A stretch of 58,233 bases of DNA from Acidimicrobiales bacterium (GTDB lineage Bacteria > Actinomycetota > Acidimicrobiia > Acidimicrobiales > AC-9): positions 1-58,233 of the forward strand of contig JBPYEZ010000063.1 in assembly GCA_051984395.1 (NCBI GenBank). The letters run 5' to 3'. Of this stretch, positions 24,560 to 30,238 are shown one piece after another. Under the pieces are notes generated by a model. The model made no database searches. It saw only the letters and a program-made list of their open reading frames with translations, and was not told the origin of the DNA. Each line of letters opens with the position of its first letter. The stretch's first letter is position 1. A program made the position numbers and the translations under genes.

Positions 24560-25444
24560 TCAACCGAACCAGACGCTGCGACGGTCGCGCAGCATGTCGT
24601 ACAGGTTGTCCTGGAGCTTGACCCTGATGGCCTCGGCCTCGTCCATGACCCGGCTCTTGGAGTACCGCTCCTGCTCGGGAGGGACCTGGAACGTGACCGG
24701 ATCGAGCACGCGCAGCTTGAACTTGGACGGGAAGTAGGCGATCGTCCCCACGACGGGCCCGAACACCAGATGATTGGCGGTGATCGGGACGTAGGGTACC
24801 CCGAGCGCGCGGGCCAACGCCGGCACCTTGGCGAGCGTCGGCATCGACTCCTCGGCTCCCACCACGGCGATGGGGACGATGGGCACGCCGGCGCGCATCG
24901 CCATCTCCACGAACCCACCACGCCCGAAGCGCCGGAGCCGGTACCGGTCCTGGTAGAGCTTGCCCGGACCCTTGGTGCCCTCGGGGAACACCAGGACGAG
25001 CTGGCGCTGCTCCCGCAGCAGGCGGAAGGCGTTCTCGGGGTGGGCGGCCACACCGCCCAACCGCGACCACATGGTGCCGATGACGGGGAAGGTCTTGAAG
25101 ATGTGGTCGGCGAGACCGTAGACGGGTCGCCCCAGCTCTTCCTCGATGCCGTGCATGATCACCGGTGCGTCGGATGGGATGGCGGCGGCGTGGTTGGCGA
25201 CCAGGAGCGCACCGCCGCTGGTCGGGATCTTCTCCAACCCCTGCCACTCCACCCGGAACCACTGACGGTAGAGCGGTGCGTAGATCTGCCGGGCGATGGC
25301 CCGCATGTGCTCCGAGCGGCCCCACTCGTCGACGTCGGACAGCCGGGGATCGTCCGGCGGCGCCTCGACACCGGCCTCCCTGGGCCGGAGCGGGACCAAC
25401 GCCGCCGGTCTCGTTGCCTCGACGAATCTGTCGCCAGCCGCCAC
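24560..25444 (-). CDS. lysophospholipid/1-acylglycerol-3-phosphate acyltransferase family (PlsC-like)
   Basis: The HX4D-type box is VANHAAAIPSD; also FPEGTKGPG and PIVPIAVVGAEE. Confidence 0.85.
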   Translation of the reverse strand: MAAGDRFVEATRPAALVPLRPREAGVEAPPDDPRLSDVDEWGRSEHMRAIARQIYAPLYRQWFRVEWQGLEKIPTSGGALLVANHAAAIPSDAPVIMHGIEEELGRPVYGLADHIFKTFPVIGTMWSRLGGVAAHPENAFRLLREQRQLVLVFPEGTKGPGKLYQDRYRLRRFGRGGFVEMAMRAGVPIVPIAVVGAEESMPTLAKVPALARALGVPYVPITANHLVFGPVVGTIAYFPSKFKLRVLDPVTFQVPPEQERYSKSRVMDEAEAIRVKLQDNLYDMLRDRRSVWFG

Positions 25445-25494
25445 GGAGTCATGTTAGGCCGCCGAGAGGGGCCTATCGTGAGGGCGAGGATGAC

Positions 25495-25568
25495 GGGGAC
25501 GTAGCCCAACCGGCAGAGGCGGGGCGCTTAAAACGCCCGTAGTGAGGGTTCGACTCCCTCCGTCCCCA
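25495..25568 (+). tRNA. tRNA with anticodon UAA (nominally Leu), 74 nt. It is class-I sized with a 5-nt variable loop, which is atypical for bacterial tRNA-Leu.
   Basis: Folded by hand into a cloverleaf. The acceptor stem is GGGGACG/CGTCCCC. The D arm is GCC-CAACCGGCAGA-GGC. The anticodon stem is GGGCG/CGCCC with loop CTTAAAA, placing anticodon TAA at 25529-25531. The variable loop is GTAGT, the T arm is GAGGG-TTCGACT-CCCTC, and the discriminator is A. No CCA is encoded. Confidence 0.8.
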
Positions 25569-25606
25569 CTCCGGACGCTTCGCGGCCGGGTGGGGATATC
25601 GGCTGC

Positions 25607-28126: not shown

Positions 28127-30238
28127 GTGACCGATGGCCCCGGTGTGCCGGTGCGACTCCGCTGGCGGCTGGCGGAGGACGACGGCGGACAGCCGGCGCT
28201 CTTCGGCGACGACGAGCTGTTGGACCGGCACGTGGGCAAGGGGGAGTTCCGGGGCCTGGAGTTCCTCCACGTGAACGCACGCCGGGTGATCAACGAGGTC
28301 CCCGCCGCGTCGCGCATGCCCTTCCGCTACACCATCAACGCCTACCGGGGATGCAGCCATGCCTGTCCGTACTGCGTCGGAGGGGAGACGCCGATCCTCA
28401 TGTCCGACGGGCGTACCCGACCGATCGCCGATCTGCGGGCCGGGGATCTGGTCTACGGCACCAAGCGGGAGGGCAGATATCGCCGCTACGTGACGACACC
28501 CGTGCTCGCCCACTGGTCGACCCGCAAGCCGGCATACCAGGTCGTGCTGGAGGACGGCACCGAGCTCGTAACCAGTGGCGACCACCGGTTATTGACGCAG
28601 CGTGGCTGGAAGCACGTGACCGGCACCCAGAACGGTCGTCTCCGCCGCCCGCACCTGACGCTCAACGACAGGATGGTCGGGACGGGTCGGTTCGCGGCCC
28701 CACCTGAGCACACTCCTGACTACCAGCGAGGGTATCTGTGCGGGCTGATCCGAGGCGATGGCAACCTCAAGACCTACACCTACGAGCGGCCCGGTCGAAC
28801 GAACGGTGACGTGTACCGCTTCCGCCTCGCTCTCACTGATCCCGAGGCGCTTCGGCGCGCCGAGCGCTATCTACTCGACAGGGGAGTTGCCACCCGCTCG
28901 TTCGTGTTCACGGAGGCGGTGGGCGCCCATCGGGCGAGTCACGGCATCCGGACTCAGGCCCGCCTGGCCGTCGCCGCCATTCAGCAAGCGGTCGCCTGGC
29001 CGGCTGTGCCTTCGTCGGACTGGTGTAAAGGGTTTCTGGGGGGGATCTTCGACGCAGAGGGCTCGTACAGCGGCTGCATCCGCATCTCCAACACCGACGA
29101 GGCGATCATCGGACGGACGACGGCGTGTCTGACAGGCCTCGGGTTCGACACGACGGTCGACATGGGCAAACGGCCGCGGGTGAAGTACGTCAGGATTCGT
29201 GGCGGCCTTCGGGAGAATCTGCGCTTCTTTCATACCGTCGACCCGGTCATCACGAGGAAGCGCGTCATCGAGGGAACCGCCCTGAAGAACCGCGCCCCCC
29301 TGAGGGTGGTGTCGGTTCAGGCGCTCGGCGACGAGCTCCCGATGTTCGACATCACGACCGGAACAGGTGACTTCATCGCAAATGGGGTCGTCAGCCACAA
29401 CTGCTTCGCTCGCCCGACCCACGAGTACCTGGGGCTGAACATCGGGGAGGACTTCGACCGGCGGATCGTCGTCAAGGTGAACGCCGTCGAGCGGGTCCGG
29501 GCCGAGCTGGCAGACCACAGGTGGCGAGGAGAGCCCATCGCCATGGGCACCAATACCGACCCCTACCAGCGGGCCGAGGGCAAGTACCGGCTGACGCGCG
29601 GGATCGTCGACGCGCTGGTTGCCGCGGGCAATCCCTTCTCGATCCTCACCAAGTCGACCCTCGTGCTGGGCGACCTCGACCGCCTGGCCGAGGGCGCGAC
29701 GCGAACCAGCGTGAGGGCCAACCTGTCGATCGGCACCCTCGAGGAGTCGGTGTGGCGGACGAGCGAGCCGGGCACACCGCATCCTCGCCAGCGGGTCGCG
29801 GCCGTGGCCCGGCTCAACGAGGCCGGCGTCCCGTGCGGAGTCCTGATCGCGCCGGTGCTGCCCGGTCTCTCTGACCATCCCGACCAGCTGGAGGAGGTCG
29901 TGGACGCGTGCGTCGAGGCGGGCGCCGTCTCGATCTCGACGAATGTCCTTCACCTGCGCCCCGGCGTGCGGCAGCACTACCTGAGCTGGTTGGAGCGGAC
30001 CTATCCGGATCTGCTCGACTCCTATCTGCGCCGCTACCGGGGGAGTGCGTATCTTCCGAGCGCCGAGCAGCGCCAGCTCAGCGGCCTCGTCACCCGCCTG
30101 GTCGACGCCGCCCGGGCCCGTCGGGGCGGCGGCACCCGGTCCCGCAGGACCGATCGGGCGCTCACCCCGAGGGAGTCCCCGCCGAGCCGACCGCGAGCGG
30201 GCGCCCCGCCGCCGGCCCAGCTCGATCTTGGCCTGTGA
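28127..30238 (+). CDS. Rv2578c/SplB-like radical SAM protein, precursor containing an intein
   Basis: The exteins read ...FRYTINAYRGCSHACPY + CFARPTHEYLG...MGTNTDPYQ...ILTKS.... Joining them gives a 360-aa radical SAM protein with the CX3CX2C motif CSHACPYC. Confidence 0.9.
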   Translation: MTDGPGVPVRLRWRLAEDDGGQPALFGDDELLDRHVGKGEFRGLEFLHVNARRVINEVPAASRMPFRYTINAYRGCSHACPYCVGGETPILMSDGRTRPIADLRAGDLVYGTKREGRYRRYVTTPVLAHWSTRKPAYQVVLEDGTELVTSGDHRLLTQRGWKHVTGTQNGRLRRPHLTLNDRMVGTGRFAAPPEHTPDYQRGYLCGLIRGDGNLKTYTYERPGRTNGDVYRFRLALTDPEALRRAERYLLDRGVATRSFVFTEAVGAHRASHGIRTQARLAVAAIQQAVAWPAVPSSDWCKGFLGGIFDAEGSYSGCIRISNTDEAIIGRTTACLTGLGFDTTVDMGKRPRVKYVRIRGGLRENLRFFHTVDPVITRKRVIEGTALKNRAPLRVVSVQALGDELPMFDITTGTGDFIANGVVSHNCFARPTHEYLGLNIGEDFDRRIVVKVNAVERVRAELADHRWRGEPIAMGTNTDPYQRAEGKYRLTRGIVDALVAAGNPFSILTKSTLVLGDLDRLAEGATRTSVRANLSIGTLEESVWRTSEPGTPHPRQRVAAVARLNEAGVPCGVLIAPVLPGLSDHPDQLEEVVDACVEAGAVSISTNVLHLRPGVRQHYLSWLERTYPDLLDSYLRRYRGSAYLPSAEQRQLSGLVTRLVDAARARRGGGTRSRRTDRALTPRESPPSRPRAGAPPPAQLDLGL
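28373..29401 (+). mobile_element. intein (343 aa) with a LAGLIDADG homing endonuclease domain
   Basis: It starts at Cys (CVGGETPILMSDG, block A) and has block B TSGDHRLL. The two LAGLIDADG motifs are YLCGLIRGDGNL and FLGGIFDAEGSY. Blocks F/G read FDITTGTGDFIANGVVSHN and are followed by the +1 Cys. GC is visibly lower and A/T-ending codons (TTA, CTA, GTA, AGA) are more frequent than in the flanks. Confidence 0.9.

Follow-up and report, generated by a model that had tools for sequence, protein, structure and literature searches.

A short-arm (type I) tRNA-Leu with anticodon UAA on the chromosome of an Acidimicrobiales bacterium

Results

Within the 58,233-nucleotide (nt) stretch of Acidimicrobiales DNA analysed here (the window: all of the sequence taken from contig JBPYEZ010000063.1, assembly GCA_051984395.1), ARAGORN finds a single transfer RNA (tRNA) gene, a tRNA-Leu(taa) at 25495-25569, and this gene, in which a leucine anticodon sits on a body with a very short variable loop, is the subject of the present report. 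The tRNA itself occupies 25495..25568 of the + strand (GGGGACGUAGCCCAACCGGCAGAGGCGGGGCGCUUAAAACGCCCGUAGUGAGGGUUCGACUCCCUCCGUCCCCA), and we annotate it as a short-arm (type I) tRNA-Leu with anticodon UAA on the evidence of ARAGORN, the Rfam family RF00005, covariation within its family and conservation in relatives. It is 74 nt long and consists, from its 5′ end, of the acceptor strand GGGGACG, the linker UA, a D arm GCC(C) AACCGGCAG (A)GGC, a single G, an anticodon arm (GGGCG, CUUAAAA, CGCCC), the 5-nt variable loop GUAGU, a T arm (GAGGG, UUCGACU, CCCUC), the acceptor strand CGUCCCC and the discriminator A73; the 3′ CCA is not encoded, the bases after A73 being CTC. The RF00005 covariance model matches 25495-25568 across model positions 1-71 of 71 with 58.3 bits (E=4.8e-10) against a gathering score of 29, which is not how a pseudogene scores, and the only non-standard position in the match is C13/A22 of the D stem, equivalent to a 3-bp D stem with an 11-nt loop.

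An earlier note on this DNA, made from the letters and a list of open reading frames (ORFs), had described a clean cloverleaf folded by hand. Each of its details is present in the sequence (7-bp acceptor stem, 5-bp anticodon and T stems, UUCGACU, U33, A37, A73 and GUAGU), its hand fold of the anticodon stem is correct, its anticodon UAA is the one that ARAGORN calls, and ARAGORN and RF00005 agree with it that this is a leucine tRNA with a 5-nt loop in place of the long variable arm. A minimum free energy (MFE) fold of the lone sequence places the acceptor and T arms correctly, whereas its D and anticodon arms are in a shifted register (z=-2.0); because of this shift we base the cloverleaf on the covariance model and the covariation, and the single-sequence fold was left out as evidence.

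The gene is retained by relatives. The two closest loci (L008 and L009, with a flanking protein 93% and 92% identical to that of the window) keep the same tRNA at the same place, differing from it only at unpaired positions (16/17 in the D loop, 26, 45, and 59/60 in the T loop); their flanks have diverged. We also scanned 185,579 species-representative genomes for the anticodon arm and T arm separated by a variable gap that matches short and long forms. The completed scan gave 66 matches, all 66 of them lone tRNA genes, comprising 34 short-arm genes, six 76-nt genes in Mycobacteriaceae and 26 long-arm tRNA-Leu(UAA) genes spread over many phyla. The short-arm loci lie in 33 assemblies: 28 of the 34 (27 assemblies) are labelled Acidimicrobiales, Acidimicrobiaceae or Actinomycetes and carry the same tRNA type, nearly identical to that of the window, two labelled “Actinomycetota” have a different acceptor stem, and four belong to Planctomycetota. 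The short variable loop is thus kept in L008, L009 and 27 related assemblies and is not specific to one strain. One of these genomes, the metagenome-assembled genome (MAG) SMAG_U4834 (L132/L168, Acidimicrobiales), has a tRNA identical to the window's beside proteins that are 80-97% identical. At 12 Acidimicrobiales loci besides L008 and L009 the tRNA adjoins, or lies within a few kb of, the same neighbour genes (the acyltransferase-epimerase-GNAT-acetyl-CoA synthetase block at 11 and isochorismatase-MDMPI-Lgt at the remaining one), with protein identity down to about 60-70%. In no scanned assembly did the short and the long form of tRNA-Leu(UAA) with this anticodon arm occur together.

In a family alignment of 87 cellular and viral sequences, pairing holds in 99.3% of cells, compensatory changes are seen at 14 of the 20 pairs, and the covariation score is 0.759 (0.178 in shuffles, no more than 0.145 in slid controls); the search patterns had fixed the D and T arms, and the independent signal is that of the acceptor and anticodon stems. 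U8 and A14, both present in the window tRNA, are invariant throughout the alignment. We thus conclude that the window encodes a genuine tRNA under purifying selection, which belongs to a short-arm leucine family and is a stable chromosomal gene.

The extent of that family became apparent in viral sequence. BLAST against phage genomes retrieved annotated tRNA-Leu of 75-79 nt in Streptomyces, Gordonia, Mycobacterium, Corynebacterium and Sinorhizobium phages, with a D arm (GTAGCCCAATTGGCAGAGGCGG) almost identical to that of the window tRNA, and a pattern scan of IMG/VR, in which the D arm, the T arm and a variable loop of 4-6 nt were prescribed and any anticodon was allowed, had at least 120 matches. 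Among the matches listed, the anticodons were UAA (80, the most frequent), UAG (20), CAA (16) and CAG (4), always with A73. Three scans for the same scaffold with a non-leucine anticodon (position 35 not A; NAY; RAA) gave zero matches, the pattern syntax having been verified by a positive control. Because the scaffold is found only with leucine anticodons of both codon boxes, and UUR and CUR codons (R, purine) share nothing but leucine, it is on sequence grounds a Leu-identity scaffold, and the earlier suggestion that this tRNA might carry another amino acid finds no support.

Cellular members with anticodon CAA were at first missed: a strict-scaffold metagenome pattern for CAA with the loop ACAGC returned zero matches because Streptomycetaceae tRNAs have G15, and the pattern relaxed at position 15 did give matches. 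One of these, from a Kitasatospora-like contig (L199), is a short tRNA-Leu(CAA) adjoining a pyruvate kinase gene whose product shares 92% identity with Kitasatospora proteins, and at the same pyruvate-kinase locus Streptomyces sp. NBC_01537 (CP109392.1, L202) has a 73-nt tRNA-Leu(CAA) with the D arm GTAGCCCAGCGGTAGAGGC, the loop TCAGC and A73. The two together read GTAGCCCAGCGG(C/T)AGAGGC in the D arm, with loop NCAGC and A73, as compared to GTAGCCCAACCGGCAGAGGC, GTAGT and A73 in the window, so that the D-arm scaffold GTAGCCCA(A/G)..GGYAGAGGC is common to the window tRNA and the Streptomycetaceae examples. The Levitt pair 15:48 covaries, being A15:U48 in the Acidimicrobiales, Planctomycetota and viral members (the viral ones having been fetched by an A15 pattern) and G15:C48 in the Streptomycetaceae CAA members, whose D loop is also one nucleotide shorter.

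Two observations were made in passing on the CAA genes. Unlike NBC_01537, Streptomyces sp. NBC_01476 (CP109446.1, L201) has no tRNA within 3 kb of its orthologous pyruvate kinase, a presence and absence that echo the remark of Fan et al. (PMC6614811) on Streptomyces without a type I gene. A 2196-bp metagenome contig of 58% guanine plus cytosine (GC), Ga0247727_10155722 (L197), packs 12 tRNA genes into 2.2 kb, among them a short-arm tRNA-Leu(CAA) with loop ACAGC, and resembles the phage-like tRNA clusters of mycobacteria.

The earlier note had compared the D arm to that of class II leucine tRNAs, and this does not hold: the D region agrees with local long-arm tRNA-Leu(UAA) at only 11-13 of 20 positions, as compared to 15-18 of 20 in the short-arm leucine family. 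With the variable region removed, the window tRNA is 67-70% identical overall to Acidimicrobiia long-arm tRNAs (2 of 7 in the acceptor, 11-13 of 20 in the D region), and 68-88% identical to the short-arm tRNAs of other phyla, Mycobacterium and viral contigs (15-18 of 20 in the D region). One long-arm gene did appear to offer a positional counterpart. In L005 (the same organism as L191/L006, with a flanking protein 78% identical), an 88-nt tRNA-Leu(UAA) with a nearly identical anticodon arm stands 3.3 kb upstream of the same gene block in the same orientation. Between that tRNA and the acyltransferase, however, lie PDDEXK, HEM4 and DUF179 genes that are absent from every short-arm locus, and there is therefore no support for the L005 gene as a positional orthologue from which the window tRNA could have arisen by deletion of the arm in situ.

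The resemblance of the anticodon arms is general. The 17-nt arm GGGCRCUUAAAAYGCCC is identical in the window tRNA and in the 26 ordinary long-arm tRNA-Leu(UAA), and since it is common to the long-arm genes of many phyla it reflects common decoding constraints rather than recent descent. The long-arm carriers include Gemmatimonadota, Longimicrobium, Eisenbacteria, Burkholderiales-like bacteria, Myxococcota, Chloroflexota, Bacteroidota, Rhodobacteraceae and Dormibacterota, and R31/Y39 is Watson-Crick in 66 of 66 matches, an unusually deep conservation for a tRNA stem. The triplet A36-A37-A38 is the usual context for N6-isopentenyladenosine at position 37 (i6A37) in tRNAs that read UNN codons.

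Codon usage in the window indicates what such a tRNA would have to read. Among about 14,200 codons, the window genes contain only two TTA, in agreement with the earlier expectation that UUA would be extremely rare, and 58 UUG, which are spread over housekeeping genes. One TTA probably lies 5′ of the true start of the MDMPI gene. The other is inside the intein of a radical-SAM gene at 28127-30238 (+), which is split by that intein (Pfam Intein_splicing and LAGLIDADG_3); the codon, at 28589, falls in a block-B-like intein motif (SGDHRLLTQRGW), which suggests that it reflects foreign codon usage of the intein.

The chromosomal setting is that of a core region of about 71% GC. Window genes, chosen by third-position GC bias and then scanned against Pfam, include Mfd, PPIase, enolase, a CO-dehydrogenase/xanthine-dehydrogenase cluster, Ppx/GppA and acetyl-CoA synthetase, and further along fumarase and SufB/SufD besides the intein-containing radical-SAM protein. 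Near the tRNA the order is GNAT, NAD-epimerase, PlsC-type acyltransferase, tRNA, isochorismatase, MDMPI/DinB protein and Lgt, and the homologues of the flanking acyltransferase are those of Acidimicrobiales/Acidimicrobiaceae MAGs (top identity 93%). The same Pfam scan found no phage, integrase or transposase gene near the tRNA, no Fem/MprF/L-F-transferase, cyclodipeptide-synthase or PEARL-type domain in its neighbourhood, and no leucyl-tRNA synthetase (LeuRS) encoded in the window. There is no second, att-like copy of the 3′ half of the tRNA within the window, and a plasmid collection gave no match to the tRNA.

Upstream of the gene, a conserved block (GGCCTATCGTGAGGGCGAGG) at 25470..25489 (+) keeps the same spacing from the tRNA in relatives with few substitutions. 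This block, GGCCTATCGTGAGGRCGAGG, 8-27 nt 5′ of the tRNA, is shared by the window, L008, L009, L143, L159, L166, L168 and L169, the 3′ flanks of the tRNA diverging in the same eight loci. Within this conserved block TATCGT (25474-25479, +), of the actinobacterial TANNNT type, is a candidate -10 element and thus the putative -10 of a tRNA promoter. In the stretch 25425-25494, just before the tRNA, the acyltransferase gene (24560-25444, -) has its start codon 50 bp from the tRNA and is oriented divergently, so that the block at 25470-25489 falls in a shared divergent promoter region.

Two further groups of loci deserve mention. Six Mycobacteriaceae species (L142, L148, L176, L177, L179 and L189; Mycobacterium/Mycolicibacterium) share an identical lone tRNA-Leu(UAA) of 76 nt, whose acceptor stem and anticodon arm are those of the Acidimicrobiales tRNA but whose D loop differs and whose variable loop (GACATTT) has 7 nt. 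In M. stellerae, an ORF ending 2 nt 5′ of this tRNA has a borderline HNH_3 endonuclease match (24.2 bits against a cut-off of 24.8), and about 2.5 kb around the tRNA are without the high third-position GC of the host; the locus may thus be a mobile HNH-tRNA cassette. In L003 and L004 (ENA ERZ25039489, one sample), the acyltransferases are 88% and 84% homologues of the window's, to which their genes are about 82% identical in DNA, but the flanks are completely unrelated and full of very short called ORFs. Only that gene is shared with the window and the loci are not syntenic, and their lack of the tRNA therefore says nothing about the window locus; these could be error-rich long-read assemblies or a moved gene.

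Discussion

The long variable arm is held by textbooks and by most annotation heuristics to define bacterial tRNA-Leu, and the earlier note had likewise taken all bacterial tRNA-Leu to be class II. That generalisation fails on two published cases. Streptomyces coelicolor has, besides four long-arm tRNA-Leu, one short-arm (type I) tRNA-Leu(CAA) with the 5-nt loop ACAGC (Fan et al. 2019, PMC6614811), and a comparative genomic study of Mycobacterium tRNA clusters includes a tRNA-Leu(TAG) with a short variable loop (PMC6582537). In the literature that we searched we found no description of a short-arm bacterial tRNA-Leu beyond these two reports, the former of which calls such tRNAs rare and remarks that some Streptomyces are without the type I gene (PMC6614811). 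The S. coelicolor gene could not be deleted and is essential; the single LeuRS of that organism leucylates both types, with a kcat/Km of 6.25 s-1 uM-1 for type I as compared to 14.2 for the long-arm form (about 44%), and charging of the type I tRNA depends on U8:A14, a tertiary pair that is a shared identity element for this LeuRS, and on a variable loop that includes nucleotide 48 and has at least 5 nt, the minimum at which leucylation is good, A73 being unimportant (PMC6614811). Acceptance of the type I tRNA is decided by the leucine-specific domain of LeuRS, and the LeuRS of human mitochondria is able to charge the type I tRNA of Streptomyces, although the S. coelicolor enzyme does not charge the human mitochondrial one (PMC6614811).

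The window gene is close to this precedent. Like the S. coelicolor tRNA, it is an actinomycetotal chromosomal gene for a UUR-box decoder that folds as a 7/5 cloverleaf and has a 5-nt variable loop of the form NNAGY together with U8:A14, G18G19, U54:A58 and A73; this comparison with S. coelicolor covers the loop ACAGC and the nucleotides just listed, the full scaffold having been compared with Streptomyces sp. NBC_01537 and L199. It differs in its anticodon, UAA rather than CAA, and in its host, which belongs to Acidimicrobiia and not Streptomycetaceae, and leucylation is demonstrated for the Streptomyces type I tRNA whereas the window tRNA is known from sequence. The window gene is thus a new isoacceptor (UAA), in a new host class, of a type already described in Streptomyces and visible in phages. 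It shares with bldA, the tRNA-Leu(UAA) of Streptomyces, its anticodon, the rarity of UUA and a high-GC actinobacterial genome, but bldA belongs to the long-arm (class II) tRNAs and its variable region measures 17 nt (PMC6614811), in contrast to the 5-nt loop here. In its D and T arms it is nearly identical to the short-loop tRNA-Leu of Streptomyces phage WRightOn, Sinorhizobium phage Phosso and the mycobacterial cluster, yet those stand in phage genomes or arrays, whereas the window gene is lone, syntenic and chromosomal, without mobile context. Animal mitochondrial tRNA-Leu(UUR) is also of type I and likewise has A73 and the anticodon UAA; the tRNAs of mitochondria have a degenerate structure and are AT-rich, and the likeness drawn here is one of type.

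We consider it very probable that the window gene is a functional elongator tRNA-Leu(UAA) of the short-arm family, charged by LeuRS and decoding UUA and mainly UUG. With 58 UUG codons in housekeeping genes and UUA nearly absent, its likeliest job is the ordinary decoding of UUG together with rare UUA. In such a scheme the gene would be transcribed from its own promoter, and the transcript would mature through RNase P processing and CCA addition; the host LeuRS of the Acidimicrobiales would presumably charge it with leucine, and the ribosome would read UUA and, mainly, UUG with the charged tRNA, which may be the main or only UUR decoder. The short-arm tRNA would thereby take, in this Acidimicrobiales lineage, the role held by long-arm tRNA-Leu(UAA) in sister lineages, and the finding that no scanned assembly has both forms fits such a functional replacement. 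An anticodon-switched (UAA) type I tRNA replaces bldA in vivo, according to the account that Fan et al. give of earlier work (Pettersson and Kirsebom 2011, cited in PMC6614811).

Several points weigh on the other side. The type I tRNA is not charged by the LeuRS of E. coli or of S. purpurogeneiscleroticus (PMC6614811), and a scan at the window tRNA for a generic sigma-70 promoter and an intrinsic terminator detected nothing. The genome scan was limited to one anticodon-arm sequence, so that a long-arm tRNA-Leu(UAA) with another stem lies beyond its reach, and with UUA almost unused the necessity of the tRNA hinges on whether a tRNA-Leu(CAA) coexists with it.

Alternatively, one could envision a regulator in the manner of bldA, namely a normal leucine tRNA whose abundance gates a few UUA-containing genes. 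Two UUA in about 14,200 codons of a high-GC Actinomycetota genome would suit this role, for which bldA itself is the precedent (PMC6614811), but the two TTA of the window are both outside regulatory genes, one being probably non-coding and the other in an intein; moreover, a U34 tRNA normally reads UUG as well, which is used throughout, and bldA has the long arm. No developmental programme is known in Acidimicrobiales, and we regard regulation of this kind as unlikely. Somewhat less likely still is an accessory tRNA recently acquired from a phage and supplementing a resident long-arm tRNA-Leu(UAA). The abundance of the scaffold in phage genomes and viral contigs is in keeping with such an origin, as are the occurrence of the acceptor stem GGGGACG in viral contig L011 and in several Mycobacterium genomes, the position of the tRNA at a point where synteny with L005 and L007 breaks off, and the long-arm gene 3.3 kb upstream of the same block in L005. 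Nevertheless, the gene is embedded in core chromosome (Mfd, enolase, the CO-dehydrogenase cluster, fumarase, SufBD) with no phage, integrase or mobile genes nearby and no att-like repeat of its 3′ half in the window, and the genome scan met no assembly with both forms. Since many Acidimicrobiales species keep the tRNA together with its neighbours, any acquisition from a phage must be ancient.

More radical departures from leucine decoding are very improbable. Mistranslating tRNAs of the tRNAProX type in Streptomyces set a precedent for a mismatch of anticodon and identity, and one might suppose that UUA and UUG are read here as an amino acid other than leucine, given an architecture unusual for a leucine anticodon and a rarity of UUA that would make reassignment cheap. 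Against this, the scaffold is paired with leucine anticodons only, in both boxes, UUG occurs in ordinary housekeeping genes, no dedicated synthetase gene is adjacent, and the homologous Streptomyces tRNA is leucylated (PMC6614811). We give as little credence to a tRNA that serves a transferase as aminoacyl donor in the modification of, for example, lipids, the cell wall or natural products; the earlier note had proposed, more generally, a use outside translation. A PlsC-type acyltransferase, a GNAT protein and Lgt are indeed among the neighbours, and dedicated non-proteinogenic tRNAs exist in other bacteria, yet no tRNA-dependent transferase domain was detected nearby, the same family occurs in unrelated contexts in Planctomycetota, Streptomyces and phages, and the anticodon loop and arm, for which such a tRNA would have no need, are canonical, conserved and the same as in ordinary long-arm tRNA-Leu(UAA). 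The chance that the gene is a pseudogene, or a normal long-arm tRNA-Leu(UAA) that lost its arm in one strain, is next to nil. The 88-nt gene of L005/L191, with its near-identical anticodon arm upstream of the same block in the same orientation, is what such a deletion would have started from, but outside the anticodon arm the two diverge strongly, agreeing at 2 of 7 positions in the acceptor and 13 of 20 in the D region, the intervening genes of L005 are absent from short-arm loci, and the short form is kept in dozens of species with compensatory changes and a high covariance score. Conservation and covariation thus refute this explanation, and the earlier description of an arm-deleted leucine tRNA applies only loosely, to an armless tRNA-Leu that is neither derived from the resident class II gene nor peculiar to a strain.

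The short-arm tRNA-Leu(UAA) of the window is therefore unusual in form but an ordinary tRNA of translation, with no sign of a change in the genetic code. A bldA-like regulatory overlay is possible, although nothing specific speaks for it, and recoding and non-translational use are disfavoured because the scaffold is coupled exclusively to leucine anticodons, the anticodon arm is canonical, the biochemistry of the Streptomyces tRNA points to leucine, and no partner enzyme lies nearby.

The short-arm leucine scaffold emerges as a coherent family that carries leucine anticodons only, is very common in phages, has been fixed as a chromosomal UAA isoacceptor in many Acidimicrobiales species, and is present in some Planctomycetota; in the literature that we searched we found no account of this breadth across viral contigs, Acidimicrobiales and Planctomycetota. 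For tRNA annotation it matters in that isotype models may flag short-arm tRNA-Leu genes as mismatches. The family also bears on LeuRS recognition, in particular on which enzymes tolerate armless substrates, and on the flow of tRNA genes between phages and their hosts. We tentatively propose, with somewhat less than even confidence, that a large clade of Acidimicrobiales abundant in soil and, separately, some Planctomycetota have given up the canonical long-arm tRNA-Leu(UAA) for good and now rely on a short-arm tRNA-Leu of the phage type as sole decoder of UUA and UUG. If so, replacement would imply co-adaptation of LeuRS, and the loss of class II structure in a leucine isoacceptor would be a recurrent, phage-seeded event in bacteria rather than a curiosity of Streptomyces.

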